From: a virus
Lineage: Duplodnaviria > Heunggongvirae > Uroviricota > Caudoviricetes
IMG/VR virus record: IMGVR_UViG_3300045988_157791
Reading direction: 5' to 3' (one strand)
Length of the DNA stretch: 64,000 nt
Both the position numbers and the translations under genes were made by a program. The notes under the pieces were generated by a model that was given only the letters and a program-made list of their open reading frames with translations, ran no database searches and was not told where the DNA came from. Every line of letters begins with the position of its first letter. Position 1 is the first letter of the stretch. Of the stretch, positions 226 to 63,931 are shown in pieces.

Positions 226-1003
226 AATTCAGCACTGCCAGTATTTATTACTCAACAGTGCCAATCGCGACGGTTTAGTTTCTGCCAGGAAACGCACCGC
301 TACTTGCACTTTTCGTTAGTGCCAGACGCTTTCGACTTCGCTCAATAGTAGAAGGCAAAATCTTTAAGTAGATGATGTTTCTGAGGACAGCACCTACTTT
401 GTAATTTATACAATGTGATGTATGGAATCATTTGTTGTGAAAACAGGCACCAATGGCAACAGTGGTTAAACCTACACAACAATCCTGTCTTCACAACGTT
501 GAGGCCACTACTCCGATTGAATGTTTGCCCAACATGTTACATATCAACGCTCGCCGGTATCTCTGTGAATAGAACCTTAGAATTGATAAAAATGTAATGG
601 CCTCAACGTTGTGTGCTGGCTAACCATACCAGCCGGGCTACGTCGCCGCCTTTTAACCCAGTATAAACGACATAATTGAACAAAATGACGTAACAGGATG
701 GGCGGTCAGTGGCTAAGAATCCGGGAGTCATATGGAGTTGAAAATATACCAACCGCCCATTCTGTTACTTCATCGGAGGGAACATGAATGTTCCCTCCTG
801 CGTTCTGCAATCACACTCGCTCAGTGTGTCCCATTTCGGTAACGAGGCTGGAAACTGACCTCGCTGGTGTTTGGCTTATTAGGCTACTGCCAGATAGACT
901 TCTTCGTTTGCACTTGTATTTAAGTTCAAACAGTCGCGTCTCAACGAAAACAAAGTCATCTTATACATAAAAGATAAGTAAGTAAATACTTATCATTGTA
1001 TTT

Positions 1004-1294
1004 TTATTCGGTTGTGACTTTTTTGATCAAGGCCACTCTACGACTAGGTGTTCTTGTGATGGTGGCAGTGAATCGTTTCGCTTGGATAGTAATGGTTTCG
1101 TTCTCCTTAAGTTGCCCGTAGCGAGTTTCCACCAGGGTGCCAAGACGCCACAGACCATCATCGATACGTTTATGACTAGCAAATTTAATCAGCAACAGTT
1201 TTACGACTAACTGACCTACGTAAAAGGCGAATGCGACTCCGGCCGCTAAGAAATAGGTGGCCAACCACCATTCCCAAGAAGTTAAATTGCTCAT
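1004..1294 (-). CDS. hypothetical small membrane protein (96 aa)
   Basis: ORF with N-terminal hydrophobic helix (WWLATYFLAAGVAFAFYVGQLVV); AAGGTG ribosome-binding site upstream of ATG. Confidence 0.5.
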   Translation of the reverse strand: MSNLTSWEWWLATYFLAAGVAFAFYVGQLVVKLLLIKFASHKRIDDGLWRLGTLVETRYGQLKENETITIQAKRFTATITRTPSRRVALIKKVTTE

Positions 1295-1439
1295 TTTTTC
1301 ACCTTTGTTTCATGAACTACCCGATACACACGCTTTCCGATGCACAGTGTTTTGGTTTTAAGTTCCTGCTTAATTAAATCACGACAGATGCCGAAGCCGA
1401 TAAGGAAGCCACCCATAAAAGCTAATGAGATGTATGGAA

Positions 1440-1655
1440 TCATTTTAACACTCCTGATTCTACTAATTGCTGTAGCAATACTTTCCCTTTATCAGTTAAC
1501 TGGTAGTTGGCCGAACACCACGTTTCAGAAACGTTTGCAACCAACCCTAAACGCTCTAACTTAGCTCGCGTTTTAGGCTTCCAGTACTCAGGGAACTCCG
1601 GCCACTTACTGATTTCATGAAGCGTTTCCTTCTCCCGTTTACTTAATACGATCAT
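1440..1655 (-). CDS. hypothetical protein (71 aa)
   Basis: AAGGAG ribosome-binding site 5 nt upstream of ATG; start overlaps the stop of an unlisted upstream small ORF. Confidence 0.5.
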   Translation of the reverse strand: MIVLSKREKETLHEISKWPEFPEYWKPKTRAKLERLGLVANVSETWCSANYQLTDKGKVLLQQLVESGVLK

Positions 1656-1818
1656 CCTTAATCTCCTTCAGGGTGTTGGTTATTTCTACAATGCGATAAA
1701 TACGACCGCGTCTTTCTATAACACCGCTTTTAATGTAGTCATTGATGCAACTGGACATCACCACAATACCTATGAAAAAACCAACTGCTAAAAATGCAAT
1801 CATCCAGCCGAGCATCAT
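1639..1818 (-). CDS. unlisted 59-aa membrane protein, translationally coupled to ligase
   Basis: Hand translation gives MMLGWMIAFLAVGFFIGIVVMSSCINDYIKSGVIERRGRIYRIVEITNTLKEIKDDRIK; its ATG overlaps the ligase TGA (ATGA) and its stop overlaps the next start. Below the 60-aa cutoff of the ORF track. Confidence 0.4.
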   Translation of the reverse strand: MMLGWMIAFLAVGFFIGIVVMSSCINDYIKSGVIERRGRIYRIVEITNTLKEIKDDRIK

Positions 1819-3616: not shown

Positions 3617-3670
3617 AAATAATCTTGTACTTACCTATCGTTATTTGCGTAAAAACGACGCACGGAGAGA

Positions 3671-4453: not shown

Positions 4454-4528
4454 ACCAACTCCTAGCTAACAGATGAAAGTATTCTTACAGAAAGATAAGT
4501 AATCATCTACTTATTTTAGAGGCGCTTG

Positions 4529-5782
4529 TTACGATAGCGCCTTAATGCCCAAAACCTTGCTTTGCAACTCCAACTGTTTGGTATACGGTTTTGCCCGATA
4601 ATAGGCTTTGATAATTTGTTCTGGCGTTGCACCGCCCGGGTCGAGTCCTTCCTCACCCAAACACGCAACTTTGACATTAAGACCGATACTGGTCAGTCGC
4701 CTGGCTGCGGCCATAGTGTTGCGTATAGCTTGCTTTTCACTATCCCACATCATGATCACATTACGTAACCCACGCGCCTTGAGCGTCAGGAACGCGCCCA
4801 ACTGATCTTCTGCATCCTGAGTGGTGTTACCAGATAGATGCATCCCGAACGTTCCTATCGGTTCCACGTAATCACGTAATGTTTCTTCATCAAAAATAGC
4901 TCGTTTAACCCCCATAACATCGAACGCCCCCTCACAGACAACTACAGTCTGTTTGCCGACCGCATTATGGCCGTTGTAGAGAAACTTACCTGAAGCTGGA
5001 AGCTGCATAGGAAAGAGGTAGCGACGTTCAGCTGTACCGGTAATGTCTCGCCCCTGAAATGTCTTCATTACCCCATCCAGATCGTAAACCGGTATCAGTA
5101 TTCGCATATCGAATATCTGTCCTTTAACCTGATCTGTATACGGATCTACATAGGCGTGCTTGCCTTCGACGCAGTATCGTAGGTCAAAATACTTTGCCAT
5201 TTCAGGCGATATGTTTCGTTCAACCAGATAGTCTGGAAGACGGCCATCTATAGGAAGTTCGTAATGACGAGGGAGTGCAAGTGGTCCCTCTAACTCGACT
5301 GTGCTTGCAAGCACTATCTCTTCTTTCTTTGGTGCCCACCCCTGGGAAAGAAGGGCGTTCTGCACATATTCCTCGAACTGTCGTCGTGATTTGCCGCTGT
5401 AGTGCTTGAGGAAGACCAGCTTATTGAACTGAATCTCTTCGGGATGATCACCAGCGAAGCATTTACCGACGCCACTGGTCAGATTGAAATATACCTTCCA
5501 GTTGGAGCTGCCGCATACCGGACACTCCTTGATATTCACTTCACGACCGCGAGCACTCACGCCTCCACGTCGATAAACGATACCTTCAGTGTCCAACCAT
5601 TGTTCAAAATCTAATTCGGTAATTAGCTCTTTCAGCTCGCTCACGATAATTCCACTTTTAATAGGCAATATTGTGACCAACCTAAATGTTGATATAACAT
5701 AAAGGCTCATGTGTTTTTCTTTTGTGGTTTGGCAAAAGAAAAGTTGTTTCACCAATGAATCAAGCGTGGAGGCGTTCTCCAC
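4529..5782 (-). CDS. DNA primase (zinc-binding plus TOPRIM, DnaG/T7-like)
   Basis: CPVCGSS...KCFAGDH zinc-finger-like segment and TOPRIM motif VVVCEGAFDVMG. True start probably the internal ATG near 5710. Confidence 0.65.
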   Translation of the reverse strand: MENASTLDSLVKQLFFCQTTKEKHMSLYVISTFRLVTILPIKSGIIVSELKELITELDFEQWLDTEGIVYRRGGVSARGREVNIKECPVCGSSNWKVYFNLTSGVGKCFAGDHPEEIQFNKLVFLKHYSGKSRRQFEEYVQNALLSQGWAPKKEEIVLASTVELEGPLALPRHYELPIDGRLPDYLVERNISPEMAKYFDLRYCVEGKHAYVDPYTDQVKGQIFDMRILIPVYDLDGVMKTFQGRDITGTAERRYLFPMQLPASGKFLYNGHNAVGKQTVVVCEGAFDVMGVKRAIFDEETLRDYVEPIGTFGMHLSGNTTQDAEDQLGAFLTLKARGLRNVIMMWDSEKQAIRNTMAAARRLTSIGLNVKVACLGEEGLDPGGATPEQIIKAYYRAKPYTKQLELQSKVLGIKALS

Positions 5783-7175: not shown

Positions 7176-7925
7176 TTAATTAGATAGGGGATCAATAAAC
7201 CGCCGTGCTTCTTCCAGTTCTTCTGGAAAGTGGGCGGAAATAAGGCGCTCTGGAACGATTTCCATTAGCCAGATAGCGGAGAAAATTGTGCGTATGCGCT
7301 TGCTGCGAGGGATGGTGCGCAAACGCTCCAGAATCCACTCAAAATAGCTTTCCTGAATCGGGTTGAACTGCATGTCTCCCATATGCTTAAAGCTAACGAG
7401 AGAGTCATCCAGACGGGTTGTTGCGCGTCTGGCTAATTTCTCTTCGAATATCTCAATCAGCTCTGGCTGCCACAAATGCTGTGGGCGCGGCAGCTTGTCC
7501 CACAGCCGTCGTGCAGCTGCGGAAAGAACGGTGGAGATAAAGTAGTCGTATGAGCAGCAATAGCGATCCGCAAACTGGCGTGCTTTCCATAGCGACGTTT
7601 TATTGGCAGTCGACAACTCCTGATAAGGCAGGCGTTTTAACCCGGTGGTGAACGGAGCTGTTTCAAAGTGTTCGCGACCGTGCGTCAGCATGATATTTGA
7701 GTACTGACGTTTGTATGCCTCCGTAAAAAGACAGGTGGCCATGAGAGGATGCATGTCGCGGTAATCAAACCACTTCGTCTCGAAGAGTTCAGCCTCGTCT
7801 TTACAGCGCGACAAACCAATGTTTTCAGCGACCCACTTGTCCATAACAGCGGTATTCCACTCTGTCATGAAGTCGTACTGGTCGTTGTCGATGGTATCGA
7901 AAAAGATTTGGCTCATGTGGCTCAC
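7176..7925 (-). CDS. hypothetical protein (249 aa)
   Basis: ORF at the head of the leftward replication-gene block; no recognisable motif. Confidence 0.5.
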   Translation of the reverse strand: MSHMSQIFFDTIDNDQYDFMTEWNTAVMDKWVAENIGLSRCKDEAELFETKWFDYRDMHPLMATCLFTEAYKRQYSNIMLTHGREHFETAPFTTGLKRLPYQELSTANKTSLWKARQFADRYCCSYDYFISTVLSAAARRLWDKLPRPQHLWQPELIEIFEEKLARRATTRLDDSLVSFKHMGDMQFNPIQESYFEWILERLRTIPRSKRIRTIFSAIWLMEIVPERLISAHFPEELEEARRFIDPLSN

Positions 7926-8032
7926 CTGGTAGGTAGTTACTTACTTATCACGATGAGCGGATGATAGCGACTGGTGGCAGTTTTTGGAAGTGGAAACGGA
8001 AGGGAGTTGTTCTGGTGGTGTCTTTTAAAAGA

Positions 8033-8087
8033 CCTGCTTCCGTATATATTTAATAAGTTACTTATTATTTATATATACAGAAGCAGG
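8033..8087. repeat. 55-bp extended palindrome, copy A
   Basis: CCTGCTTCCGTATATATTTAATAAGTTACTTATTATTTATATATACAGAAGCAGG; outer arms CCTGCTTC/GAAGCAGG around an AATAAGTTACTTATT core. Second copy at 39347-39401. Confidence 0.7.
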
Positions 8088-8198: not shown

Positions 8199-8966
8199 AT
8201 GGACGATTTATCGGTATACGCGAGATCATTGGATAAGGCTAAATACTATGTTTACTGTCTCTATGATACAGAAGACAAGATGAAAAGACCGTTTTACATA
8301 GGAAAAGGCAAATCGACTCGTTGTCTCGATCACATCAAGTATCCCGATGACTCTCCCAAATCCATGCGGATCAAAGAACTTTTGGCTAATAAAAAATTAG
8401 GCATAGATATACTTCGTCATGGTATGGATGAAACCACAGCCAAACTTGTTGAGGCGACATGCATCGACCTTATGGGGGTCGGAGAGCTTACGAATAAGGT
8501 ACGAGGAAGTGGTTCCATGATGGGCAGAATATCACTGGACGCCTACCATCACTTAGTGCTGCAAGAGGAAACTGAAATTGCTCCTGAGCACGCCGGTCTT
8601 GCCTTCCTGCTAAACAGCACCTACAAGTCAGGAATGTCCGCTCTGGCATTATATGAAGCTACGCGTGGCGTATGGGCAAAGGTTCCAAGAGACGAGAATC
8701 TCAAATATGCCTACGCTACATATGGTGGGCTGATAATGGAAGTTTATCAGATTGAATGCTGGGTCAAAGCCGGTTCTCAGCAGTACTTTACAAGGGATAT
8801 AGCTCTTGGCCCCGACACAAAACGTTATGAATTTGTTGGCAGAATAGCCGATGAGCATATTAGAAAACTGTATGTAGGCAAATTAATCAAGAAGCCACCA
8901 AGCTACGGTAGCCCTTTTGTGAAGGTTGGGGTGGTTAGGACTGAACATAGTGTTAGCGCGGCATAA
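8199..8966 (+). CDS. GIY-YIG nuclease domain protein, free-standing homing-endonuclease-like
   Basis: N-terminal YYVYCLYD...RPFYIGKGKSTR...H matches the GIY-YIG signature; only plus-strand gene in a minus-strand block. Confidence 0.65.
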   Translation: MDDLSVYARSLDKAKYYVYCLYDTEDKMKRPFYIGKGKSTRCLDHIKYPDDSPKSMRIKELLANKKLGIDILRHGMDETTAKLVEATCIDLMGVGELTNKVRGSGSMMGRISLDAYHHLVLQEETEIAPEHAGLAFLLNSTYKSGMSALALYEATRGVWAKVPRDENLKYAYATYGGLIMEVYQIECWVKAGSQQYFTRDIALGPDTKRYEFVGRIADEHIRKLYVGKLIKKPPSYGSPFVKVGVVRTEHSVSAA

Positions 8967-10046: not shown

Positions 10047-10078
10047 TGGAGAGTTCCCTTTGCGTCTATTATTATCGT

Positions 10079-10112
10079 CTGAAACAACTTGTTTTCTTAT
10101 ATGTGATATAGC
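10079..10112. promoter_or_regulatory. palindromic operator GAAACAACTTGTTTTC upstream of the parA-like gene
   Basis: Near-perfect palindrome about 35 bp upstream of the ParA start; same motif recurs upstream of terS and several accessory genes. Confidence 0.5.
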
Positions 10113-10364
10113 CTAAATGCCTACGGCTACGGTGTAAAGGTTAAATGGTAGGTTGTGGTTAACAATTGGCAATCATAGCTTGTATTTGTCTGTTGAAAAA
10201 AGTAACAATGACCTCTATATTACAAGTACGGTGATATGCCGTACACAATTTGATAATGCACACGTAATGGGCTATAGCCTTTTAAAGTAATTTTTGAGTC
10301 GAAAACTCAGTTTGAACAGAGGAGATTGATGGCCTTCCTACATCACGGCCATCAGGAGGAATAC

Positions 10365-10634
10365 ATGTCAGCACTAAAAAAGCAGCGCATCGATTTGAGA
10401 TTAACCGATGACGATAAAAGCATCATCGAGGAAGCTGCCGCAATGTCTAACCAGAGCATTACTCAGTTTATGGTTAGCAGTGCATCTGAACGTGCCGTGA
10501 AAGTTATAGAGCAACACCGTAGACTAGTTCTGAATGAAGAATCCTGGAATCTGGTTATGGACGCTATAAGCAATCCTCCGGCACCGAACGACAAGCTGAA
10601 ACGAGCTGCTGATCGTCTGAAAAGCATGGAGTAG
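10365..10634 (+). CDS. DUF1778-type antitoxin (TacA/AtaR-like)
   Basis: MSALKKQRIDLRLTDDDKSIIEEAA... with AGGAGG ribosome-binding site before the ATG at 10365; 8 bp before the GNAT toxin gene. Confidence 0.75.
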   Translation: MSALKKQRIDLRLTDDDKSIIEEAAAMSNQSITQFMVSSASERAVKVIEQHRRLVLNEESWNLVMDAISNPPAPNDKLKRAADRLKSME

Positions 10635-10641
10635 TTTACTC

Positions 10642-11163
10642 GTGAGCAATACAACGATAGAGATTTTCTCTGGAGAGAAAGATTATGATCTAAACGGTTT
10701 TGATTGCGGCGAAGAGTCACTAAACGCCTTTTTAGCCAACCACTTAAAAAGGCAGCATGAGGGAAAAATTCTTCGTGCTTATGTGCTTTGCACTCAAGAA
10801 GAAAGGCCAAAAGTGTTAGGATATTACACTTTGTCAGGTAGTTGTTTTGAAAAGGAGTCCTTACCTTCAAGAAGCAAACAAAAGAAGGTTCCTTATCGGA
10901 ATGTTCCAAGTGTTACTTTGGGTAGGCTGGCTTTGGACAAGTCCCTTCAAGGTCAAGGATTTGGCTCAATGCTTGTAACACATGCAATGCGCGTTGTGTA
11001 CAATGCATCTCTTGCTGTAGGCATTCATGGACTTTTCGTTGAGGCGTTAAATGACAAAGCCAAGGCGTTTTATAAAAGTTTAGGCTTTATCCAGCTGGTT
11101 GGTAACAACGAGCGTTCTTTGTTCTATCCTACAAAATCTATCGAAAAATTGTTCGAAGAATAA
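10642..11163 (+). CDS. GNAT-family acetyltransferase toxin (TacT/AtaT-like)
   Basis: GNAT motif GQGFGSMLVTHAMR; classical DUF1778 plus GNAT toxin-antitoxin arrangement. Start codon is GTG. Confidence 0.75.
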   Translation: MSNTTIEIFSGEKDYDLNGFDCGEESLNAFLANHLKRQHEGKILRAYVLCTQEERPKVLGYYTLSGSCFEKESLPSRSKQKKVPYRNVPSVTLGRLALDKSLQGQGFGSMLVTHAMRVVYNASLAVGIHGLFVEALNDKAKAFYKSLGFIQLVGNNERSLFYPTKSIEKLFEE

Positions 11164-12626: not shown

Positions 12627-12816
12627 GAAAAGTCAAATCGGGATGGCGGATTTATATCACACTTCCCCTTTCAATTATAGGTATATACTTACCTATCTAT
12701 GCATATACCGTTTAACGGCTGTTCAAATTCGTATCTAGTAACTCACTAATATATCCCTATGATTGCGGCTGTGAGATCGCATTTTAAACCTCACAGCCAT
12801 ATAAATAATGTCTAAA

Positions 12817-16854: not shown

Positions 16855-16947
16855 GTTGAATATGCTCCTTGATTTGGTGGGCTATCCTTGCCCACCATAA
16901 AGTAAGTACCTACTTATTTTTACCGATGTAAATATTTTTTTCTACTA

Positions 16948-23795: not shown

Positions 23796-23844
23796 CCTGT
23801 TAGCGCCACAATAATAGTAAATTAGTACCTACTTATCCAGATAC

Positions 23845-30313: not shown

Positions 30314-30351
30314 TCATTGCGCTAATAGTAAGTATATACTTACCAATTGAG

Positions 30352-33857: not shown

Positions 33858-33930
33858 TTCTCGCTCCTACAAAAAGGGTGGGCGTATAGCCCACCCTTTA
33901 ACATAGATAACTACCTATCTACCACACTGA

Positions 33931-37315: not shown

Positions 37316-37341
37316 TTGAATAACCTTAGATAATTACTTAC

Positions 37342-39346: not shown

Positions 39347-39401
39347 CCTGCTTCCGTATATATTTAATAAGTTACTTATTATTTATATATACAGATGCAG
39401 G
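39347..39401. repeat. 55-bp extended palindrome, copy B
   Basis: CCTGCTTCCGTATATATTTAATAAGTTACTTATTATTTATATATACAGATGCAGG; one mismatch to copy A. Confidence 0.7.
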
Positions 39402-39425: not shown

Positions 39426-39692
39426 TTACATCACCAGTAACTTCGCTTTGGCTCGACCTAAAGTGGTTAACCCAAGAGTCCGGCGGTGATAGCGATTGTC
39501 ACTGCGTTGGCGCGTATGCCCTTTCTCCACCAGCCCCTTTTTTATCAGAGCGCGAATTGAGAACTGGATACTTTGCTTGGTTGTCTTGTACGGCAAAACT
39601 TCAAGCAATTCGTCCAGGTCAAGTAGATGACCTCGCTCATAACCGAGATTGAGCGTTTTGATGATGTCCTTTTGTTTATCGGTTAACGTCAT
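39426..39692 (-). CDS. small winged-helix-like DNA-binding protein (88 aa)
   Basis: Last gene of the five-gene operon; basic C-terminus. Fold assignment tentative. Confidence 0.4.
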   Translation of the reverse strand: MTLTDKQKDIIKTLNLGYERGHLLDLDELLEVLPYKTTKQSIQFSIRALIKKGLVEKGHTRQRSDNRYHRRTLGLTTLGRAKAKLLVM

Positions 39693-40592: not shown

Positions 40593-41254
40593 GAATGGAC
40601 CTCATCATGACTACCATTGTGATATTCCACCTTCACGCGTTCTTTGTAGTGCTTGGTGATCTGCATATCCGGGCGCAGCGCGTTCTTCAGGTCTTCGTGA
40701 GTCGTCGCCACCATTACCGTCGCACCAACCTTTCGAGCGGCACGCTGGAGGTTAGATGCCACAACCTGAGCGGTTACACGGTCTAAAACAGCACCGAACT
40801 CGTCAGCAGCCCACACTTTAGCGCCTGACTCAATCAGTTTGGCAATCTTGAGACGATATTTCTGACCGTCTGACATTTCAGAAGGCTTGCGAACAAACAG
40901 ATATGCATCGTTCAGACCAGCCATAGATAACAATCCAAGCGCATCACTGGTCGTTTTGCCCAACTGATCGATGACGTTAACCTCATTATCGAAGGTAAAA
41001 TCATCGATGGAGGCTACAGACAGCCCTTCATCCTTCATCTGTCGTTGCAACTCGCGCAGCACAACGGATTTGCCGGAACCGGATTGGCCGGTGATGTACA
41101 CCACATCGCCCTGCTTCACTTCCAGCTCCAGATTGTCGTAAAGCGTCCACTCTTTTTCGTCCAGACCAAGCCCGAACGACTCAGCGATTTCCAACGTGCG
41201 CGTGGTTTTATTTACGCGTGTCTGAAACGATACGTTGATGATGTATTTGCTCAT
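40589..41254 (-). CDS. minimal ABC-type ATPase (221 aa)
   Basis: Walker A GQSGSGKS, ABC signature-like SDGQKYR, Walker B WAADEFGAVLD, H-loop TTHEDL. Confidence 0.65.
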   Translation of the reverse strand: MSKYIINVSFQTRVNKTTRTLEIAESFGLGLDEKEWTLYDNLELEVKQGDVVYITGQSGSGKSVVLRELQRQMKDEGLSVASIDDFTFDNEVNVIDQLGKTTSDALGLLSMAGLNDAYLFVRKPSEMSDGQKYRLKIAKLIESGAKVWAADEFGAVLDRVTAQVVASNLQRAARKVGATVMVATTHEDLKNALRPDMQITKHYKERVKVEYHNGSHDEVHS

Positions 41255-41952
41255 GCAGCCATCTCCCCGGAAGAGATCTTCTCCGCATATGCCACAAATG
41301 CGTCTACCCCGCTTTCTCCCGTCATTTCTTCCATGTGGGCAAGCAAATCACCAACAACAATGGCAGAGCCAGCAGGAAGCGTTTTAAAGCCCAATACGTC
41401 GACAACACGTACTTCTTCCGCTGCAACTTCACGACTGATCTCGGTGTGTTCATCCTTCTGTCGTTTAGTTTCTTCGCCAAGATCGATAACTAGCGAGTCG
41501 GTGTCCATTTCTTCTGTCATACTGCCAACGAGAACATTCAACTCACGCTCTTCAAAGCCGAAAACCTCGATATCGTCCAGAACAAGCGACTCAAGCTCTT
41601 TCTGTAGCTTAATTGCATCGTAATCAATGCTGGCAAGTCGGTTATCTTCAAGGCGCTTCGCACGAACCTCGTCATCACTGAGATCATCGCGAACAATAAC
41701 CGGTACGCGCTCAAGTCCAGCAAAAATTGCAGCCTCACGGCGGCCATGACCAGTAATAATTACGTCGTTCTTATCGACCGTAATTGGCTGGTCAAATCCG
41801 CGCTTTTTAATGGCTGCGGCCAGATCTCTGATCTGCTGTTCATCATGCTTTTTGGCATTCATCTCATAGGGAATAAGATCTGCCGGGTCGCGATATACGA
41901 TTTCAAACTTTTTGGTCATTACATACGCTCCTTGTAGTAGTCGACCAGCCAC
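41251..41952 (-). CDS. ParB/Srx-like N-terminal domain protein (233 aa)
   Basis: ParB-box-like ITGHGRREAA; acidic C-terminal half. Confidence 0.6.
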   Translation of the reverse strand: MAGRLLQGAYVMTKKFEIVYRDPADLIPYEMNAKKHDEQQIRDLAAAIKKRGFDQPITVDKNDVIITGHGRREAAIFAGLERVPVIVRDDLSDDEVRAKRLEDNRLASIDYDAIKLQKELESLVLDDIEVFGFEERELNVLVGSMTEEMDTDSLVIDLGEETKRQKDEHTEISREVAAEEVRVVDVLGFKTLPAGSAIVVGDLLAHMEEMTGESGVDAFVAYAEKISSGEMAA

Positions 41953-42617
41953 ACCAGAGCCTCACCAGCGTTCTCCATTTCATTACCGGTGTTAATAGCC
42001 TGCTCTTTGATGATGTTTTTTATGGTTTCTGCAACACGATCTGACGCATCGAAAGTTACTTTGAAGCGCATGGTCTGATGTTCCGCACCCACACGTTCGG
42101 TTTTCTCTCGTTTGTCGGTATCGACAGGCTCATCACTACCACGAGACAACGCCTCCAGTGCTTCAAGGTCGATTGCCGCCTCTTTTGCTAAAACCATCGA
42201 GATTTCGTCGTCATACGGGGCGATTTCAGACAGTTGATAGTCAAGTTCTGACTGAATTTCTTCAATGAAGCGTTGCAATGCGATTTGGTCGTCTTCACCG
42301 TATCGCTCGTTGTCCACCAGTGACATCTGTTTAGCTACGACATCGCTAATTTTGCCCACAGAAAGCACCGGAACCGTTGAAATTCCTTGCTCAATAGCGG
42401 CACGCCAGCGATGTTCGCCGCCGAGGATTTCAAAAAATCCATCTTCAAGTTCACGAGCCAAAATTGGCTTAAAAAAGCCCAATTTTTCGATAGAACCTTT
42501 CAGTTTTTCAAAATTCTGCGCACCAACCGAATTGGTGTTCCAGGTATTCGGGCGAAGGTTGGCAACATCAACCTGCAAAATCGTGATTTTTACATCCATT
42601 TTATTGCTACAATCCAC
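41919..42617 (-). CDS. ParB/Srx-like N-terminal domain protein (232 aa), paralogue of the downstream gene
   Basis: ParB-box-like LGGEHRWRAA; first gene of the operon, divergent from the SF2 helicase. Confidence 0.6.
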   Translation of the reverse strand: MDCSNKMDVKITILQVDVANLRPNTWNTNSVGAQNFEKLKGSIEKLGFFKPILARELEDGFFEILGGEHRWRAAIEQGISTVPVLSVGKISDVVAKQMSLVDNERYGEDDQIALQRFIEEIQSELDYQLSEIAPYDDEISMVLAKEAAIDLEALEALSRGSDEPVDTDKREKTERVGAEHQTMRFKVTFDASDRVAETIKNIIKEQAINTGNEMENAGEALVWLVDYYKERM

Positions 42618-42681
42618 TAAGTAATCACTTACTTATTATAATAGCCAAATAACATACAAAAGGCACTAAGGAAAGAGGTTT

Positions 42682-44243: not shown

Positions 44244-44522
44244 ATGAGCGAAAAGAAAACAACTTATTGCCAAGTGGCATTGTCTGATAAGGCCAATGAA
44301 AAACTTGGAAAATTTCAAATAAAACTCAAAGAGAAAAAAATCAAGATGTCTAAGGCTGAAGTTATCAATGCCATTCTGGAGACGATGACTATGGCTGAAT
44401 TTGACAAAGTCACATCTGCCGTTGGGGTTTCCGCTAAGACGCGTGAGAAAATCATGCGCATCTATGAGAACTCCAATATGACAAAAAAAGATCTAGAGGA
44501 AATACTGAGCAGGTTGCCGTAA
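44244..44522 (+). CDS. small ribbon-helix-helix-like protein (92 aa)
   Basis: Starts 2 nt after the helicase stop; KMSKAEVINAILE resembles an RHH strand-helix. Confidence 0.4.
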   Translation: MSEKKTTYCQVALSDKANEKLGKFQIKLKEKKIKMSKAEVINAILETMTMAEFDKVTSAVGVSAKTREKIMRIYENSNMTKKDLEEILSRLP

Positions 44523-46442: not shown

Positions 46443-46964
46443 ATGGTTAAAGACATCACCTACGGCATACCGGCTGAAGTCTGGCCGCGAGACTACGAAC
46501 ATGCTGAAAACATACTTATGTTCTGGCGGAAGAACAACATTCCTGTAAGAGTCACGCTTGAAGACGGTCAGGTGTTTTGCATGTACGTTCAGGGGACAAT
46601 GCCTTCCCGCAATAAGCTAGATTTATGCCCGCTTCCATATGATAAAGAAAATCGTATAAGACTCCCACTTGAGCGCATTAGCACAATTGAATCAGGTGTA
46701 ATCGATGGCATTGCTCGCGAGTTCAAAGGTAGGCTAACAATACATCCAGACTATGTTGACAATCAGCCATCACGCCGTGACTTTTTTGCGATATGTCGCA
46801 AGGCTTATCAAAACGACCAATCTATAAGGGTCTACATGGCAGACGGTCGTGAAATAGAAGGGGTGTCAAGAGGCGTTGATGCTTGTCAGGTCACTCTTAA
46901 GTTAGAAGACGGCAGAAAAATACTTGTTTTCTTCGATTGGGTTGAACGAATCCTTCCATTTTAA
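46443..46964 (+). CDS. hypothetical protein (173 aa)
   Basis: ORF followed by a clear intrinsic terminator. Confidence 0.5.
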   Translation: MVKDITYGIPAEVWPRDYEHAENILMFWRKNNIPVRVTLEDGQVFCMYVQGTMPSRNKLDLCPLPYDKENRIRLPLERISTIESGVIDGIAREFKGRLTIHPDYVDNQPSRRDFFAICRKAYQNDQSIRVYMADGREIEGVSRGVDACQVTLKLEDGRKILVFFDWVERILPF

Positions 46965-50608: not shown

Positions 50609-51070
50609 TTAAGCGAATACGCTTTCAGGGATTAAGGTGTCAGCAGGAATGCCGGAGGTAATGCGCAGGCCGTACTGACCAATCCAGGTAGTGTTGGTAT
50701 TCAGGCTGGAGGCGAATACGGTGTTAACCATATTCATCATGGTTTCAAACACCTCTTCATCAACCTGGCGGAAGTAGTTCTCGATTTTCAGCAGCAGCGG
50801 GTCAGTTGCATCGAAAATAGACTGGTATTGAGTCGCGTACTCGCCGCCGGAGGCATCACCTTTACGCACGATCGTACTGGCCTGGACTTCGGCACCAGTT
50901 TCGGTGTTGTACGTAACAACGGTGATTTTTGCCACATTCTTACCTTCGGCGGTTTCAGAGGCATAGTAAACATCAACTGTCAGTTTTTCGCGTTTAACGG
51001 TCATTTCACTCTCCGTAGTGTATTGGTTATTTTTATATTCTATGATCGTAAGTATGTACTTACAATACAA
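50609..51070 (-). CDS. hypothetical protein (start probably MTVKREK near 51004)
   Basis: TAAGTATGTACTTAC motif and a hairpin immediately upstream. Confidence 0.45.
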   Translation of the reverse strand: MYCKYILTIIEYKNNQYTTESEMTVKREKLTVDVYYASETAEGKNVAKITVVTYNTETGAEVQASTIVRKGDASGGEYATQYQSIFDATDPLLLKIENYFRQVDEEVFETMMNMVNTVFASSLNTNTTWIGQYGLRITSGIPADTLIPESVFA

Positions 51071-54894: not shown

Positions 54895-56928
54895 TTACTT
54901 AACCTGGTGGCCAGGTTTAGCACCAGCATCCGGGCTTAACAGGAAGATATCTTTCCCGCCGGGGCCAGCAGCCATCACCATGCCTTCAGAGATACCGAAG
55001 CGCATTTTACGTGGTGCCAGGTTAGCCACCATAATGGTGTGACGACCAATCAGTGCCTGCGGATCCGGGTAGGCAGAACGAATACCGGAGAAGACATTGC
55101 GTTTTTCACCGCCGAGATCCAGTGTCAGGCGCAGCAGTTTGTCAGAACCTTCAACAAACTCTGCGTTTTCGATCAGCGCTACGCGCAGGTCAACTTTGGC
55201 GAAGTCGTCAAAGGTGATGGTTTCCTGAATCGGATCATCTGCCAGTGGGCCAGTAACTGGCGCGGCAGCTGCTTTCACTTCTTCTTTAGACGCTTCCACC
55301 AGTGCTTCAACCTGCTTCATATCGATGCGGTTATACAGTGCCTTGAACGGATTTACTTTATGGCCCAGCAGCGGTTGCTGGATACCATCCCAGGTCAGTT
55401 CTGTATTCAGGAATGCTTCTGCACGTTCAGTCAGTTTCGGCAGTACCGGCTTCAGGTACGTCATCAGCACGCGGAACAGGTTAATGCCCATAGAGCAAAT
55501 CGCCTGCAGATCGGCATCGCGTCCTTCCTGCTTCGCCACCACCCACGGAGCCTGTTCATCGACATAGCGGTTAGCCAGGTCAGCCAGTGCCATGATTTCA
55601 CGGATAGCTTTACCAAATTCGCGGCTTTCCCACGCTTCACCAATCACTTCAGCGGCATCAGTGAAGGTTTTGTACAACTGCGGGTCAGCCAGCTCGCTTG
55701 CCAGCACACCGTCAAAACGCTTATTGATAAAGCCAGCGTTACGGGACGCCAGGTTAACCACTTTGTTCACGATATCGGCATTCACACGCTGAACGAAATC
55801 CTCCAGGTTGAGATCGATATCATCAATGCGCGAAGAGAGTTTCGCAGTGTAGTAGTAACGCAGGCTGTCAGCGTCAAAATGATTCAGCCAGGTGCTGGCT
55901 TTAATAAAGGTGCCGCGAGACTTGGACATCTTCGCGCCGTTCACCGTCACATAGCCATGAACAAACAGGTTGGTCGGCTTGCGGAAGTTGCTGCCTTCCA
56001 GCATGGCAGGCCAGAACAGGCTGTGGAAGTAAACGATATCTTTACCGATGAAGTGGTACAGCTCGGCGGTGGAGTCTTTCTTCCAGTATTCATCGAAGCT
56101 TACGCTGTCGCCGCGCTTGTCGCACAGATTCTTGAAAGAACCCATGTAGCCAATCGGTGCGTCCAGCCAGACGTAGAAATATTTGCCCGGCGCGTTCGGA
56201 ATTTCAAAACCGAAGTAAGGGGCGTCGCGGGAGATATCCCACTGTTGCAGGCCAGATTCAAACCACTCCTGCATTTTATTTGCCACCTGCTCCTGCAACG
56301 CACCGCTGCGGGTCCATGCCTGCAACATTTCGCTGAAAGAGGGCAGATCAAAGAAGAAGTGTTCAGAATCACGCATTACCGGCGTAGCACCAGAAACCAC
56401 CGATTTCGGTTCAATCAGTTCAGTCGGGCTGTAGGTCGCGCCGCAGACTTCACAGTTATCGCCGTATTGATCTGGCGCTTTACATTTCGGGCAGGTGCCT
56501 TTCACAAAACGGTCCGGCAGGAACATGCCTTTTTCCGGATCGTACAGCTGAGAGATGGTGCGGTTTTTAATAAAACCGTTTTCTTTCAGGCGAGAGTAGA
56601 TAAGTTCTGACAACTGGCGGTTCTCTTCGCTGTGCGTCGAGTGATAGTTGTCATAGCTGATGTTAAAGCCTGCGAAATCAGTCTGATGTTCCTGACTCAT
56701 TTCGCCAATCATCTGCTCCGGTGTGATACCAAGCTGCTGAGCTTTAAGCATGATCGGCGTGCCGTGGGCATCGTCGGCGCAGATGAAGTTGACCTCGTGG
56801 CCGCGCATTCGCTGGTAACGGACCCAGACATCAGCCTGGATGTGCTCCAGCATATGGCCGAGGTGGATTGAGCCGTTAGCGTACGGCAGCGCGCACGTCA
56901 CCAGAATTTTCTTCGCGACTTGGGTCAT
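54895..56928 (-). CDS. metG: methionyl-tRNA synthetase
   Basis: 677-aa protein from [31 protein letters not shown] with class I HIGH-type (HLGH) and KMSKS motifs and C-terminal tRNA-binding domain. The track ORF extends upstream to a non-ATG start. Confidence 0.95.
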
Positions 56929-57085
56929 AGTAGGCATTACTTCTTTGTAGTGAAAAGGGGCTTGATAGTAACAAAATGGCCTTATGTCTGCCATGTGATA
57001 ACAGCATTTCTCATAAATGATTAAATGTCGTAGCTGGAGTACACTACAAGGCGACAATTGCGCAAATTAAAATAAAGGAGACGGG

Positions 57086-58186
57086 ATGAGCGAGTCCAAA
57101 TCGCCGGATGCCCTGAGAGCAATGGTAGCCGGTACGCTGGCTAATTTTCAGCACCCAACCCTGAAACACAACCTGACTACGCTTAAAGCGTTACACCATG
57201 TTGCGTTGATGGATGACACACTGCATGTCGAACTAATCATGCCTTTCGTGTGGAATAAGCCTTTTGAAGACCTGAAAGAGCAATGTAGTGGTGATCTGCT
57301 CCGTATCACTGGCGCAAAGGCTATTGACTGGAAGCTGTCGTACAACATTGCCACGCTTAAGCGCGTCAAAAACCAACCAGGCATTAATGGCGTTAAGAAC
57401 ATTATCGCCGTCAGCTCAGGCAAGGGCGGCGTAGGTAAATCCTCCACGGCGGTAAATCTGGCACTGGCGTTGGCTGCTGAAGGTGCGAAAGTTGGTATTT
57501 TGGATGCCGATATCTATGGTCCATCAATTCCAACCATGCTGGGCGCGGAAAACCAACGTCCAACCTCACCGGACGGTACTCACATGGCACCTATCATGTC
57601 TCATGGCCTGGCAACCAACTCTATTGGTTATCTGGTCACCGACGACAATGCAATGGTGTGGCGTGGACCGATGGCCAGCAAGGCGCTGATGCAGATGTTG
57701 CAGGAAACTCTATGGCCTGATCTGGACTATCTCGTTCTCGATATGCCGCCGGGCACTGGTGATATTCAGTTGACGCTGGCGCAGAACATTCCTGTAACTG
57801 GTGCGGTTGTGGTAACTACGCCGCAAGACATCGCGCTGATCGATGCGAAGAAAGGCATTGTGATGTTCGAAAAAGTCGAAGTGCCGGTACTGGGTATCGT
57901 CGAAAACATGAGTGTGCATATTTGCAGTAACTGCGGTCATCACGAGCCAATTTTTGGCACCGGTGGCGCACAGAAACTGGCCGAGAAATACAACACGCAG
58001 TTGTTAGGCCAAATGCCACTTCATATCTCTCTTCGTGAAGATCTGGATAACGGAACACCAACCGTTATTAGTCGTCCAGATAGCGAATTTACGGCTATTT
58101 ATCGTGACCTCGCAGATCGCGTTGCTGCCCAAATGTATTGGCAAGGTGAAGTAATACCTGGCGAAATCGCATTCCGCGCAGTGTGA
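57086..58186 (+). CDS. apbC: Mrp/ApbC Fe-S cluster carrier ATPase
   Basis: Deviant Walker A SSGKGGVGKSST, CSNCGHH Cys motif, divergent from metG with about 157-bp spacer, the usual enterobacterial arrangement. Confidence 0.9.
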   Translation: MSESKSPDALRAMVAGTLANFQHPTLKHNLTTLKALHHVALMDDTLHVELIMPFVWNKPFEDLKEQCSGDLLRITGAKAIDWKLSYNIATLKRVKNQPGINGVKNIIAVSSGKGGVGKSSTAVNLALALAAEGAKVGILDADIYGPSIPTMLGAENQRPTSPDGTHMAPIMSHGLATNSIGYLVTDDNAMVWRGPMASKALMQMLQETLWPDLDYLVLDMPPGTGDIQLTLAQNIPVTGAVVVTTPQDIALIDAKKGIVMFEKVEVPVLGIVENMSVHICSNCGHHEPIFGTGGAQKLAEKYNTQLLGQMPLHISLREDLDNGTPTVISRPDSEFTAIYRDLADRVAAQMYWQGEVIPGEIAFRAV

Positions 58187-59340: not shown

Positions 59341-59342
59341 AT

Positions 59343-61591: not shown

Positions 61592-61729
61592 GTGTTTTTC
61601 TCTTCTTTGCTGTTACATAAGCACTACCAAGTGCTGGTTTATTTTCACAAATAAGAAAATGTAGAAAACAATTTATTTAAGGCCATAAGTCATGGCCTTT
61701 ATTTATTCATGCAGAAGGATTTGTAGCGC

Positions 61730-62110
61730 CTAATTGCCGTATAAAATGGGTTGAGGCGCTTGCCAGTAAGCTCCACCGTCCCATGTGAACCCCATGCGAA
61801 TAAGAGTGTTTATTGCGGCTTTGGTAGACTCTGATTCGACGCTGACTTTTCGAAACTCTTGAACCTCTTTCGCCAACTTGTATGTAATTGTGCAGGGGAC
61901 GATTGCAGCCCAGCCTTTCTCATGACTGTTAATGACCATCTGGATGTGACCATCCAGAATAGGTTGATCAGGCATGTTATTGAAAACGTCTGCCTGTTTT
62001 TGAATGTGAAGAAAAAGCCTTGCCAGCTCCATTTGCTCACTACGAGACAAGGGATTATCAAGAGGGCTTTTTGCAAAAGCGGCTATACGCTGTGCGTCAA
62101 TGCCAAACAT
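61730..62110 (-). CDS. hypothetical protein (126 aa)
   Basis: Start abuts the stop of 62110-62814. Confidence 0.45.
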   Translation of the reverse strand: MFGIDAQRIAAFAKSPLDNPLSRSEQMELARLFLHIQKQADVFNNMPDQPILDGHIQMVINSHEKGWAAIVPCTITYKLAKEVQEFRKVSVESESTKAAINTLIRMGFTWDGGAYWQAPQPILYGN

Positions 62111-62814
62111 CAGCGCACCTCACCATCTTTATGGCTGGAGTTAACTTCCGTCATTAAATGTCTGACGTAATCGACAAGAGAGCCGCCTGGTGGAATCTGG
62201 CATTCCTCAACTAACTGGAAGTAGATATCCGCTGCATTACGTGTATTGCTACCCGCGCATATTCTTTCTTCCCGAAGTGCATGAAGCTCGTTGATCAAAC
62301 GGTCACACTCTCCGTTACGCTGATCCACAACAGCCTCAAGTTCTGCGACGCGTTCACCTGGCGTCTTACCTTCTTTGCGTTGGATGGTAACGACGAAATC
62401 GCCAATTGCAGGGACGTTGTAATCCAGCTCAAGGTAGTTTTTGGCACCGCTGCGGACGAACTCACCCGCGAACATGGTGGCGAACATCGCAGAGGCCACT
62501 TCGCCGTTGAAAAGTGACTCCAGATCTAACGGAGTCCCGGCATCAAGAGCCTCTTTTGCTGTATCCATTGCATCCATGAACCGATCAAACTCATTGGCGC
62601 GCTTTTCCAAGTTTTTCCATTGCTCGCTCCAACGTTTGGCAACGAAGTCTATGAATGTTTTCGCGGATTCATCAAAATCCCCCTCAAACTTAACGATGCC
62701 TTTATCAATAATGATCTGGCCTACCGCATCCTCTGCATAACCTTTCAATGTAAACTTGAAAGGAAAATCAGAATGGCCTGTGACGTTAAAATGCTCTAAC
62801 TGGAGGTTGTTCAT
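62110..62814 (-). CDS. hypothetical protein (234 aa)
   Basis: Preceded by TAGGTAAGTATTTACCTATC motif at 62855-62880. Confidence 0.45.
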   Translation of the reverse strand: MNNLQLEHFNVTGHSDFPFKFTLKGYAEDAVGQIIIDKGIVKFEGDFDESAKTFIDFVAKRWSEQWKNLEKRANEFDRFMDAMDTAKEALDAGTPLDLESLFNGEVASAMFATMFAGEFVRSGAKNYLELDYNVPAIGDFVVTIQRKEGKTPGERVAELEAVVDQRNGECDRLINELHALREERICAGSNTRNAADIYFQLVEECQIPPGGSLVDYVRHLMTEVNSSHKDGEVR

Positions 62815-62875
62815 GTGTTTTTCTCTTATCGTTTAGTAACTACATTCTTACACAAATTAGGTAAGTATTTACCTA

Positions 62876-63931
62876 TCATTTAACGCGTTTGAAAACGTAT
62901 ACGCTGACTGTGATCCCTGTGTCTTCAAACTCGTTGGTAAACGACTTCCCTCTGGCATAAACGTAATTATCCATCGTCATCCAGTCCAGTATTGGCGCAG
63001 TGCCCGGCAATACTGCTACAAGACGCCCGCCGACTTTCAGATGCCCCAGCGCAGCCAGCGTGTGCTCTCTATGACGACCAAGCGAGTACGGCGGGTTCAT
63101 AACGATTTTGTCGAACTGATAACCTACGTTGTCCTCAGACCACTTTATGAAGTCGCAGCAAATCGTGTTCGTATACCCTTTTCCGCGCAGGATATCAGCG
63201 AAGAGAGGTGCGATTTCTATGCAGGTAACATCTTCCAGATCGGCGTTGATATAGGCCAGAAGATCCCCACGTCCGGCTTGAGGCTCCAGCAGCTTCTCAC
63301 CAGACTTCAATTCAGTGGCTCTGGCAACGTACTCAGCAATCAAGCGTGGGGTAGGGTAGAACTGGTGTGATTTTGTATCCGGTATTAATCCGGTAGCCAC
63401 AATCGTATTTAGCGTATGGCCGATCTCATACGGGAACTGCCAGTGCTTTTTCTCCTGCACGCCGCCAATGAAGCTCAGTGTGCGCTCAAGCTCTTCCACC
63501 TGCGACTTCTGGAGAGCTGAATCAGAGAAGTACCATACGCCTTTGTCTTTGCTTAATCGCCCGTCACGAAGCGCAGTGCGAACCGGCACGGAGATCGTCT
63601 TCTGGATTAACCCGAACTGCTTTGGTGCCCGTGTTTTTGGCGCGGTGCGACATGGCGCGGGGATTGCAGCAGGCATACTGTAAGCCAGCACCTCATTCAA
63701 CTTCCAGGCCACGTCAGGATGTATTTCAAAGTGAACGTTGCCGTTCTTGAACATCTTCACGCGCATTAGATTTCCATCGACGTTCATCCAGTCACCGGTC
63801 TGGCAGTCGTTTGCCCGATACGCAGCTGATAGCACCTCAGCAGTGCGGTTGATGGTAATAAATTCTTTGTGCGCGAAGAAATGAAGCAAGACACGCAGAT
63901 CGTCGATATAGTCCTCTTTGCGATAGTTCAC
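62876..63931 (-). CDS. N6-adenine DNA methyltransferase
   Basis: Motif I LEPQAGRGDL (S-adenosylmethionine binding) and motif IV NPPY; no restriction endonuclease gene adjacent in window. Confidence 0.75.
   Translation of the reverse strand: MNYRKEDYIDDLRVLLHFFAHKEFITINRTAEVLSAAYRANDCQTGDWMNVDGNLMRVKMFKNGNVHFEIHPDVAWKLNEVLAYSMPAAIPAPCRTAPKTRAPKQFGLIQKTISVPVRTALRDGRLSKDKGVWYFSDSALQKSQVEELERTLSFIGGVQEKKHWQFPYEIGHTLNTIVATGLIPDTKSHQFYPTPRLIAEYVARATELKSGEKLLEPQAGRGDLLAYINADLEDVTCIEIAPLFADILRGKGYTNTICCDFIKWSEDNVGYQFDKIVMNPPYSLGRHREHTLAALGHLKVGGRLVAVLPGTAPILDWMTMDNYVYARGKSFTNEFEDTGITVSVYVFKRVK

Follow-up and report, generated by a model that had tools for sequence, protein, structure and literature searches.

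Palindromic sites dispersed along SSU5-like phage-plasmids: putative operators at lytic gene boundaries that resemble the binding site of host SlmA

The 64-kb stretch of DNA analysed here (hereafter the window; 64,000 nt of IMG/VR record IMGVR_UViG_3300045988_157791) is part of an SSU5-like phage-plasmid of Escherichia coli, and it carries 14 copies of an inverted repeat with TAAGTA/TACTTA half-sites. The repeat marks the boundaries of lytic gene blocks, and its sequence properties indicate that it is a genuine, lineage-wide, dyad-symmetric protein-binding site. Our preferred explanation, in which we place about even confidence, is that the copies are dispersed operators of a genome-wide transcription control circuit that is read by a lineage-encoded regulator and silences the lytic genes. 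The window is 97–99% identical to Escherichia phage Cyrano (pLF82) and phage CMS-2020a, ~80% identical to Salmonella phage SSU5 and ~79% identical to Klebsiella phage-plasmids such as pJN2-26, and it runs in the reverse orientation of the public records. From ~1,000 to 42,600 it holds the minus-strand genes, which include the ParB-like operon, terS, terL and the portal, capsid, tail, lysis, par, helicase, primase and ligase genes. A preliminary description of the motif had argued from the copy near 62855 that the right-hand region is related to the main element. This proved correct: a single phage-plasmid matches the entire window and the 62855 copy is kept in Cyrano and SSU5, so the right-hand region is part of the same element. 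Phage-plasmids of the SSU5 type are widespread in E. coli, Salmonella and Klebsiella, can bring resistance genes with them and have hardly been studied for their regulation.

Sites were scored using a symmetric 24-column matrix refined on four genomes (consensus TGATAAGTAAGTACTTACTTATCA, 23.7 bits), with a cut-off of at least 14.7 bits in the window. All 14 coordinates listed in the preliminary description hold the motif and the matrix returned exactly those 14 (Table 1), picking in addition both of the long palindromes (~8037–8077 and 39351–39391). Scans against shuffled controls placed the motif far above chance. ATARGTARGTA with at most one mismatch gave 16 matches compared with 1.83±1.48 (maximum 6) in 100 dinucleotide shuffles, and the half-site matrix at 12 bits or more gave 26 matches compared with 1.8±1.4. 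TAAGTA/TACTTA was the top intergenic-enriched hexamer, with 25 of its 39 copies within the 9% of the sequence that lies outside long open reading frames (ORFs) (p ~6e-17), and de novo expectation-maximisation on intergenic DNA led to a palindrome with a 4-bp period.

The element is an inverted repeat of fixed geometry, 20–24 bp long, which can be written TGATAAGTAAGT·ACTTACTTATCA (the dot marks the dyad). Its E. coli variant is ATARGTAAGT·ACTTACYTAT, containing two 7-bp half-sites with their centres one helical turn apart. Inverted half-sites paired solely at total lengths of 12, 16, 20 and 24 bp, because the half-site has an internal 4-bp period. Thus the spacer of N2–4 given earlier was an artefact: the inner positions are degenerate and GTAA-GTAA repeats internally, and the quantisation of the spacings at 4 bp rules out a variable spacer. 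We then compared mirrored positions in 50 sites, using as a control the same right halves dealt to other sites. No pairing covariation was found in these 50 sites (399 complementary pairs versus 401.4±7.5 after permutation, p=0.65), and RNA pairing was equal on the sense (9.02 of 12) and antisense (9.06 of 12) strands. The two halves therefore vary independently around one half-site consensus, suggesting that a protein reads two half-sites and that no stem is selected.

Judged from these properties, the motif appears to be a double-stranded DNA site for a dimeric sequence-specific protein, i.e. an operator. The preliminary description had left the choice between a phage-specific promoter, an operator and an RNA processing signal. 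The operator is favoured by the dyad symmetry, the 7-bp half-sites one helical turn apart, the independence of the halves and the lineage-wide conservation at orthologous junctions, whereas a promoter consensus as such did not hold up (see below) and neither did an RNA element. A palindrome located between the genes of polycistronic units, and often near ribosome-binding sites, might be expected to form a hairpin for RNase III-type processing or RNA stabilisation, or to serve as a translational operator. However, the permutation test on mirrored positions speaks directly against it, the lineage conserves sequence rather than pairing, and the stem would consist merely of 8–10 A-U-rich pairs, so we regard an RNA role as extremely improbable.

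The intergenic placement described earlier held for 12 of the 14 copies. The other two overlap the terL stop codon (37324–37347) and lie within the portal gene (35817–35840), the latter position having been noted from the start. By contrast, the order said to be usual, namely stop codon, motif, stem-loop, ribosome-binding site and ATG, applied to only ~4 of the 14; elsewhere the stem-loop comes before the motif or there is none. Sites start −6 to 30 nt from the upstream stop codon and end 0–48 nt before the next start codon. In the window they precede the portal, post-capsid, major tail, tail L, tail fibre and holin genes, three replication-region genes, the tRNA cluster and the ParB-like operon, and in the whole Cyrano genome also the SSB, RNR, ThyX, methylase and SbcD genes. 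Lysogen-expressed regions are largely free of sites. The density is ~1 site per 4 kb, with ~28 copies per 108-kb genome.

Table 1. Motif copies in the window, long palindromes and candidate binding proteins
Feature	Position	Strand	Sequence	Score (bits)	Context
Site 1	972–995		TGATAAGTATTTACTTACTTATCT (minus-strand gene orientation)	31.1	8 nt past upstream stop codon; ~750 nt upstream of tRNA-Asn and tRNA-Tyr; conserved at Cyrano 38250 and SSU5 41771
Site 2	3617–3640		CGATAGGTAAGTACAAGATTATTT	14.7	Strong left half-site, degenerate right
Site 3	4493–4516		AAATAAGTAGATGATTACTTATCT	24.2	Extended −10-like TGTAAGAAT 5 nt later
Site 4	7927–7950		TGATAAGTAAGTAACTACCTACCA	28.0	2 nt from Shine-Dalgarno sequence of gene 7176–7925
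Site 5	12675–12698		AGATAGGTAAGTATATACCTATAA	27.7	Upstream of holin gene
Site 6	16896–16919		AAATAAGTAGGTACTTACTTTATG	23.2	Between tail protein J and tail fibre gene; GC-rich stem-loop directly after
Site 7	23815–23838		GGATAAGTAGGTACTAATTTACTA	20.4	Between tail genes M and L; stem-loop after
Site 8	30326–30349		CAATTGGTAAGTATATACTTACTA	22.9	Upstream of major tail gene
Site 9	33901–33924		TGGTAGATAGGTAGTTATCTATGT	20.1	6 nt past major capsid gene stop, then terminator-like hairpin
Site 10	35817–35840		AAATAAGTCAGTACTTACTTATGA	28.0	Within portal gene, in the sole stop-free frame of the consensus; conserved in SSU5 and pJN2-26
Site 11	37324–37347		CGATAGGTAAGTAATTATCTAAGG	21.5	Fills 26-nt terL–portal spacer, includes terL stop codon
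Site 12	42615–42638		TAATAAGTAAGTGATTACTTAGTG	21.9	64-nt divergent region, UvsW-like helicase (plus)/ParB-like operon (minus); abuts TATAAT
Site 13	51046–51069		TGTATTGTAAGTACATACTTACGA	15.4	Immediately past intrinsic-terminator-like hairpin
Site 14	62855–62878		TGATAGGTAAATACTTACCTAATT	29.2	Overlaps upstream stop codon; TGTAAGAAT 4 nt later
Long palindrome copy 1	8037–8077		Centre AATAAGTTACTTATT		Downstream of parA-like operon; motif-family membership uncertain
Long palindrome copy 2	39351–39391				Between winged-helix gene and terS
88-aa winged-helix (MarR-like) protein, phrog_900	39426–39692	−			Conserved in Rhizobium phage; candidate binder (inferred)
Two ParB_N-domain proteins	41251–42617	−			Head of operon starting at site 12; alternative candidate binders/loaders

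Comparison with related phage genomes showed that the sites are kept at orthologous junctions. The scans covered Cyrano short of its 100–108 kb end, SSU5 short of 100–103 kb and pJN2-26 in part, and yielded 27–28 sites per 100 kb in Cyrano and SSU5 and 10 in a 50-kb stretch of pJN2-26, compared with 0–0.1 in shuffles. The sites were all at orthologous junctions, and those of the pJN2-26 stretch include several perfect palindromes (AGATAAGTAAGTACTTACCTATCA and TAATAGGTAAGTACTTACCTATTA). In a 103-kb IMG/VR relative whose proteins are only 26–56% identical, TTAAGTAAGTACTTACTTAA was present between terL and portal and elsewhere. An exact search for GTAAGTRAGYRCTYACTTAC in IMG/VR returned ~90 stretches at 35–64% G+C, of which we estimate that ~2 would arise by chance. 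One group of these matches was formed by the Rhizobium phages V1VFA-S/B1VFA/RHph_X66, whose gene order is that of SSU5 (a UvsW-like helicase, and divergently from it two ParB-like genes, ATPases, a small winged-helix gene, terS, terL, portal, capsid and tail genes, then helicase, primase and ligase genes, with RepC and ParA in addition). Their proteins are 25–53% identical to those of the window; terL is 53% and portal 50% identical. V1VFA-S contains 33 sites in 93 kb (0–0.1 in shuffles), located upstream of the ParB-like operon, between terL and portal, ahead of the tail genes and behind the capsid and tape-measure genes. The succession of capsid stop codon, site and hairpin seen at site 9 in E. 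coli recurs in this phage, and the junction of site 11 is occupied in the Salmonella and Klebsiella elements, the distant 103-kb relative and the Rhizobium phage alike. The V1VFA-S half-site profile (T91 A100 A98 G98 T98 A97 A97 G64 Y87, in per cent) defines the core of the lineage as TAAGTAA-N4-TTACTTA, with half-site centres 11 bp apart.

Exact copies of GTAAGTRAGYRCTYACTTAC also occur in roughly 8–10 phage families at 35–45% G+C (IMG/VR stretches L014–L158) with no detectable protein homology to SSU5-like genomes. In one such family the sequence lies ~376 nt upstream of terS, and the terL resembles those of the Pelagibacter phages HTVC027P and HTVC023P; in stretch L023, two copies 55 bp apart are each followed by the palindrome ACGAAGATCTTCGT. 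A search by guilt by association for a shared DNA-binding gene beside the sites in 60 unrelated IMG/VR loci found none, and BLAST of the 20-mer against isolate phages gave just chance 16-nt matches in T4-like alt genes.

The occupation of orthologous junctions despite proteins only 25–53% identical supports a lineage-encoded circuit. The copies occupy short spacers between lytic blocks (replication, nucleotide metabolism, head, tail and lysis), and under the preferred reading the array would silence these genes in the plasmid state and release them on induction. Protein bound at a copy between or over the −35 and −10 elements of a σ70-type promoter would exclude RNA polymerase, and protein bound at a copy filling a tiny intra-operon spacer would block or modulate read-through. 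That a protein at such a position can silence a promoter follows from a reporter that was repressed by a binding site of the E. coli protein SlmA (SlmA-binding site, SBS) placed between −35 and −10 (PMC3573117). In the window, TTGAAA-17-TATGAT (35844–35816, minus strand), the best σ70-like promoter in the scanned 28–45 kb, exactly brackets site 10, and the σ70-like TTGAAT-18-TATACT (30360–30331, minus strand) overlaps site 8. TTGAAA-17-TATCAT brackets the copy upstream of CYRAN_56 (Cyrano 57444, SSU5 55693). The scarcity of canonical σ70-like promoter matches in the lytic block at 1–20 kb (13 compared with 30±5.7) also speaks for this reading. If the array works in this way, it would define the regulon and the transcription-unit boundaries of a whole lineage, from enterobacteria to rhizobia, and the motif would be a precise bait for finding the master regulator.

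RNA levels were taken from a published RNA-seq table of the LF82 lysogen (PMC9928086, S1 Table), which includes LB, macrophage-6h and other samples. Genes behind some promoter-embedded sites were at or near background in LB and rose selectively in macrophage-6h, by +3.6 log2 from CYRAN_55 to CYRAN_56 and by +2.5 log2 from CYRAN_11 to CYRAN_12 (site 8); a rise of +3.6 log2 in the same sample was also seen from CYRAN_59 to CYRAN_60, where the site overlaps the start codon. RNA fell from the capsid gene to the next gene (−3.0 log2), from CYRAN_34 to CYRAN_35 (−2.5 log2), across site 7 from tail gene M to L (−1.9 log2; −3.8 in another sample) and, in the lysogen, across site 4 from the par operon to CYRAN_31 (−6.0 log2, 64-fold). 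CYRAN_34, the gene downstream of site 3, was moderately expressed in the lysogen, and at site 12 the helicase side was expressed with the ParB side silent. An association of the sites with transcript boundaries, named beforehand as one of two points on which the motif could fail, is suggested by a median |Δlog2| of 1.81 at site junctions compared with 0.84 at other co-directional junctions (p=0.02), and it fades in the stricter comparison given below.

The presence of the same array at the same junctions in Rhizobium phages means that a lineage-encoded protein must read the motif. We consider the best candidate reader to be the conserved 88-aa MarR-like protein, as inferred from its conservation. 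Of the small DNA-binding proteins, it alone could be traced from the E. coli to the Rhizobium phages (31% identity to V1VFAS_061, E 7e-8), and it is predicted to form a winged helix (predicted local distance difference test 82) whose closest structures are MarR-family domains (template-modelling score 0.7–0.76). Its gene was at background in LB and was induced in stress samples. The ParB_N proteins, set at the head of an operon (39702–42617, minus strand) together with two ABC-type ATPases, are a second possibility. The two bear the arginine patches GGEHRWRAA and GHGRREAA, E. coli and Rhizobium phages have the ParB_N and ATPase genes in one order, and one of the ATPases is 53% identical to its Rhizobium-phage counterpart, a conservation equal to that of terL and portal. 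In the ParB-like proteins only the N-terminal domain was recognised, and no helix-turn-helix (HTH) or other sequence-specific DNA-binding domain was detected.

Several other proteins were considered and set aside. The product of 46443–46964 (plus strand) is a full-length homologue of FljA, the phase-1 flagellin repressor (PF03614, E 5e-81), with a weak Hfq-like C-terminal match, and is conserved in SSU5 and pJN2-26; it was rejected as the binder, with no site near its promoter and no other support. On a phage-plasmid such a homologue may interfere with host flagellin expression. CYRAN_117 (44244–44522, plus strand), just downstream of the UvsW-like helicase gene, encodes 92 aa with a ribbon-helix-helix-like N-terminus (TTYCQVALSDKANEKLGKF...) and is expressed ~12-fold above background in the LF82 lysogen. 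Its homologues are all close and confined to E. coli elements, and the Rhizobium-phage protein at the same position is unrelated, which argues against a lineage repressor. The Rhizobium phage encodes a σ70-family factor between its CobS-like and DNA polymerase genes (V1VFA-S 79869–80513; 4869–5513 of stretch L160), which as a reader of the motif is excluded by its absence from the enteric relatives.

A number of observations weigh against the preferred reading. No binding protein was found for the motif, and the expression of the winged-helix gene at background in the LB lysogen rules its product out as the lysogenic repressor; the protein might act as an early activator or an anti-silencer instead. 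A putative HTH repressor that is expressed in the lysogen, CYRAN_45, is absent from SSU5 and has no site near its gene. A strict σ70-like promoter coincides with only 2 of 12 scanned sites, and none in 1–20 kb overlaps one. At site 12 the abutting promoter, that of the helicase gene, is active in the lysogen, and the expression jumps at site junctions are not significantly above those at other junctions with gaps of at least 20 nt (p=0.18). Finally, the likeness of the motif to the 20-bp SlmA site would be left as a coincidence unless SlmA is involved, and we put the probability that so good a match to any known bacterial factor arises by chance at ~1%.

The measured consensus of SlmA, GTGAGTACTCAC, requires G, T, A and G at positions 1, 2, 4 and 5, and tolerates any purine at position 3 (Kd ~60 compared with 50 nM for G to A) and any pyrimidine at position 6 (PMC3020112). 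We used the 12-bp SBS core rule GTRAGY·RCTYAC (Tonthat 2011) and the 20-bp SBS consensus GTAAGTGAGCGCTCACTTAC (Cho 2011, quoted in PMC4423959), written here as GTAAGTGAGC·GCTCACTTAC. The phage consensus ATAAGTAAGT·ACTTACTTAT is identical with the latter at 16 of 20 positions, the four differences being at the SlmA-tolerated (3 and 6) or outermost positions, and its core GTAAGT·ACTTAC fits the 12-bp rule exactly. The form in the relatives is GTAAGTAAGY·RCTTACTTAC. The SBS consensus AAGTAAGTGAGCGCTCACTTACGT and the chromosomal SBS17 (PMC4423959) share with the phage motif the flanking TAA/TTA and the GTRA-GTRA period, and on the phage matrix they scored 11.1 and 10.7 bits respectively in the centred register, where scores of 10 bits or more occur ~15 times per Mb of random sequence. 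Position 6 of the SBS is held by pyrimidines only in the phage sites (T in 43 and C in 7 of 50). None of the window sites matches the 12-bp rule exactly and five do so with one mismatch; 10 of the 14 have at most two mismatches to GTRAGYRCTYAC, and SBS17 and SBS12, which were defined by chromatin immunoprecipitation, also have two. Exact core matches number three in SSU5 and three in the 50-kb stretch of pJN2-26.

Since the motif matches the published SlmA site, we strongly predict that SlmA binds the motif in enterobacteria, and we expect host SlmA to occupy many of the copies in E. coli. That SlmA truly occupies an array of ~28 such sites in these hosts, making it a portable nucleoid-occlusion platform or a set of SlmA-silenced lytic promoters, is a possibility that we hold tentatively and with more doubt than belief. 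A step further is that the array was selected to recruit SlmA, the host nucleoid-occlusion factor, which antagonises FtsZ when bound to DNA. Plasmid copies or replicating phage DNA would then keep the septum from forming, which might serve to check plasmid inheritance or to halt division in lytic growth; alternatively, SlmA itself could silence the lytic promoters until genome amplification titrates it away. Besides the sequence match, the numbers lend this some weight, as there are ~500 SlmA dimers per cell (nucleoid) and 24–52 chromosomal sites, and a multicopy plasmid with two SBSs plus SlmA produces a lethal division block (PMC3573117). The phage density of ~1 site per 4 kb, set against 24–52 per 4.6 Mb of chromosome, is 25–50 times higher. 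With ~5 plasmid copies per cell (PMC9928086), the phage sites would, if occupied, by our estimate outnumber the chromosomal SBSs and could hold a large share of the ~500 dimers. Septation could then be delayed until the plasmid copies segregate, or division blocked on genome amplification; with SlmA as a silencer, relief would come by titration or by the phage winged-helix protein reading the same sequence.

Several features of the array do not fit recruitment of SlmA. The phage sites and the chromosomal SBSs are alike in being dispersed multicopy 20-bp palindromes of the same type with an internal GTRA-GTRA 4-bp period, but nearly all phage sites lie between genes and most chromosomal SBSs within them (only 2 of 24 are intergenic; PMC5519180). 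The phage motif has its information concentrated on TAAGTAA, the SlmA site on the inner hexamer's G, T, A and G. Among the core positions of the enteric sites, the A and G at SBS positions 4 and 5 are the least informative (0.8 and 0.5 bits), and the T and A that flank the 12-bp core rank among the most informative (1.7 and 1.2 bits). The lack of an exact match to the 12-bp rule in the window also counts against it, although SBS17 and SBS12 do no better. A tblastn search with SlmA against four genomes of the lineage and 50,697 phage records found no SlmA/TetR homologue encoded by the lineage, so that a phage-encoded protein of this kind was rejected as the reader; no sites were present in a faecal contig that does encode a SlmA homologue. 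The array also extends to Rhizobium phages, and the exact 20-mer to contigs resembling Pelagibacter- and Limnohabitans-type phages. Hosts of these three types are not known to have SlmA. We therefore consider it unlikely that the array was selected to recruit SlmA. Should SlmA occupy it in enterobacteria all the same, the Rhizobium motif would imply that a phage regulator and SlmA converged on, or compete for, one DNA word; should SlmA not bind, the array would be a warning case of a 20-bp match to a host-factor site that arose independently. The match makes it possible to test directly whether a mobile element taps into the control of the host division site or uses a nucleoid-occlusion protein to silence genes. 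Nothing relevant to the motif, to the regulation of SSU5 or to phage-borne SlmA sites turned up in the literature searched. The gene annotated as 'MinD' in Cyrano was discarded as a link to division, being a lysogen-expressed Mrp/ApbC-type ATPase gene (plus strand; PF10609, E 2e-102) divergent from metG (minus strand) at 54895–58186, a host-like gene pair.

Another way to account for the array is that the copies are activator sites of phage-specific promoters, at which a dimeric early protein (e.g. the 88-aa winged helix) recruits host RNA polymerase to a weak −10 element. This is how P1 late transcription works, with 11 late promoters each having a 9-bp inverted repeat bound by Lpa (PMC10695390), and several of our results are in keeping with it. 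The hexamer TAnnnT overlaps the downstream repeat end in 68% of sites, and in the Rhizobium phage, at 60% GC, this place is taken by TACAAT, TATTAT or TACTAT. Few canonical σ70 promoters are present in lytic blocks (13 matches in 1–20 kb compared with 30±5.7 in shuffles), the winged-helix gene is induced in the same samples as site-proximal genes, and RNA rises across several site junctions. However, TAnnnT is almost as common on the antisense strand (60%), and among the site junctions, falls in RNA level are as numerous as rises. No directional consensus at a fixed distance from the start was found: the motif is symmetric, and outside the promoter-embedded copies its dyad lies at ~−20, −22, −30, −42 or +1 to +20 relative to −10-like hexamers, with no fixed distance to −35 elements or start codons either. 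At three copies (37324–37347, 7927–7950 and Cyrano 59397) there is no room for a promoter and leader, and some other sites lie in near-consensus promoters that need no activator. Replication-type and structural genes are both preceded by sites, which would be unusual for an activator of one temporal class. On balance, we think it rather improbable that the copies are activator sites. A fixed embedded σ70 promoter, with −35 four bases upstream and −10 at the right end, was ruled out by a flank profile without a general −35 and by the near strand symmetry of the −10-like hexamer. The annotations of Cyrano, SSU5 and pJN2-26 list neither an RNA polymerase nor a sigma factor. Six of the 13 promoter matches in 1–20 kb cluster at 10047–11004, in the par/toxin–antitoxin region that is expressed in the lysogen.

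Lower still we place an architectural role without any part in transcription, in which the copies would be loading or organising sites for the ParB-like proteins and ABC-type ATPases in condensation, segregation or packaging (cf. parS/ParB, Noc and its binding sites, and the dispersed centromeres of N15). The palindromes are fairly evenly dispersed over the genome, the ParB-like operon itself begins at a site, and its two ParB_N and two ATPase genes have kept their order from E. coli to Rhizobium phages. Nevertheless, gene neighbourhood is the sole tie of the ParB-like proteins, in which no sequence-specific domain was recognised, to the motif; ~20 kb of accessory DNA has no sites; and sites kept so strictly to gene junctions and promoter spacers speak for a part in gene expression. 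Such a role is thus quite unlikely.

The operator reading has parallels among temperate phages, in which the P1 C1 operators, the 'stoperators' of mycobacteriophage L5 and the conserved inverted repeats of phiC31 are dispersed repressor operators. The P1 and L5 sites are asymmetric and read by monomeric repressors, and those of L5 are orientation-dependent. As in these systems, tens of copies of one site are spread over a temperate element (here a phage-plasmid, like P1), with 14 mostly intergenic copies in the window and 27–33 per genome in the relatives, and they lie in short intergenic spaces, at times overlapping stop or start codons, an arrangement compatible with genome-wide prophage silencing. 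The present motif differs from the P1 and L5 sites in being palindromic and of unrelated sequence, and it shows no single orientation of the L5 kind, with 25 sense and 22 antisense half-site matches in SSU5. A cognate repressor expressed in the lysogen, as in P1, L5 and phiC31, was not found here. Dispersed palindromic sites are also known from the KorB/KorA network of the IncP plasmid RK2 and from the Noc-binding sites of Bacillus subtilis. The likeness to these lies in replicon-wide palindromes and in regulators encoded together in a single 'central control' operon, ParB-family proteins among them, with a site in front of that operon; the ParB-like proteins here are without a recognisable HTH, however, the sequence is another one, and nothing links them to the motif. 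The Lpa-dependent late promoters of P1, again a phage-plasmid, share the conserved inverted repeat beside a −10-like hexamer at many transcription units, but the P1 sites are 11 in number, restricted to late genes and fixed in position, whereas here there are ~28, which also precede replication and nucleotide-metabolism genes and are variably placed relative to −10-like hexamers (PMC10695390).

Some further features of the window were recorded. The extended −10-like TGTAAGAAT is common to 4519–4530 and 62843–62854 on the minus strand, 4–5 nt downstream of sites 3 and 14, and is conserved in SSU5; a related TAAGAT is found downstream of site 1. The long palindromes, ~55 bp (CTTCCGTATATATTTAATAAGTTACTTATTATTTATATATACAGAAG...), had been described as containing the same half-site pair as the motif. 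The outer ATAAGT/ACTTAT words are indeed common to both, but the arrangement differs, with a separation of 1 bp as opposed to 8 bp. Further copies lie at SSU5 33471 and 78317, Cyrano 31177 and 78097, and pJN2-26 74856, and the public records of Cyrano and SSU5 both begin at the centre of copy 2 (window ~39364). The long palindrome may serve as centromere, origin, packaging site or bidirectional terminator. The tRNA-Tyr and tRNA-Asn genes downstream of site 1 are at 59–225 (minus strand), and an ORF of the GIY-YIG (LEM-3-like) type lies on the opposite strand at 8199–8966 (plus strand), between the par region and the replication genes.

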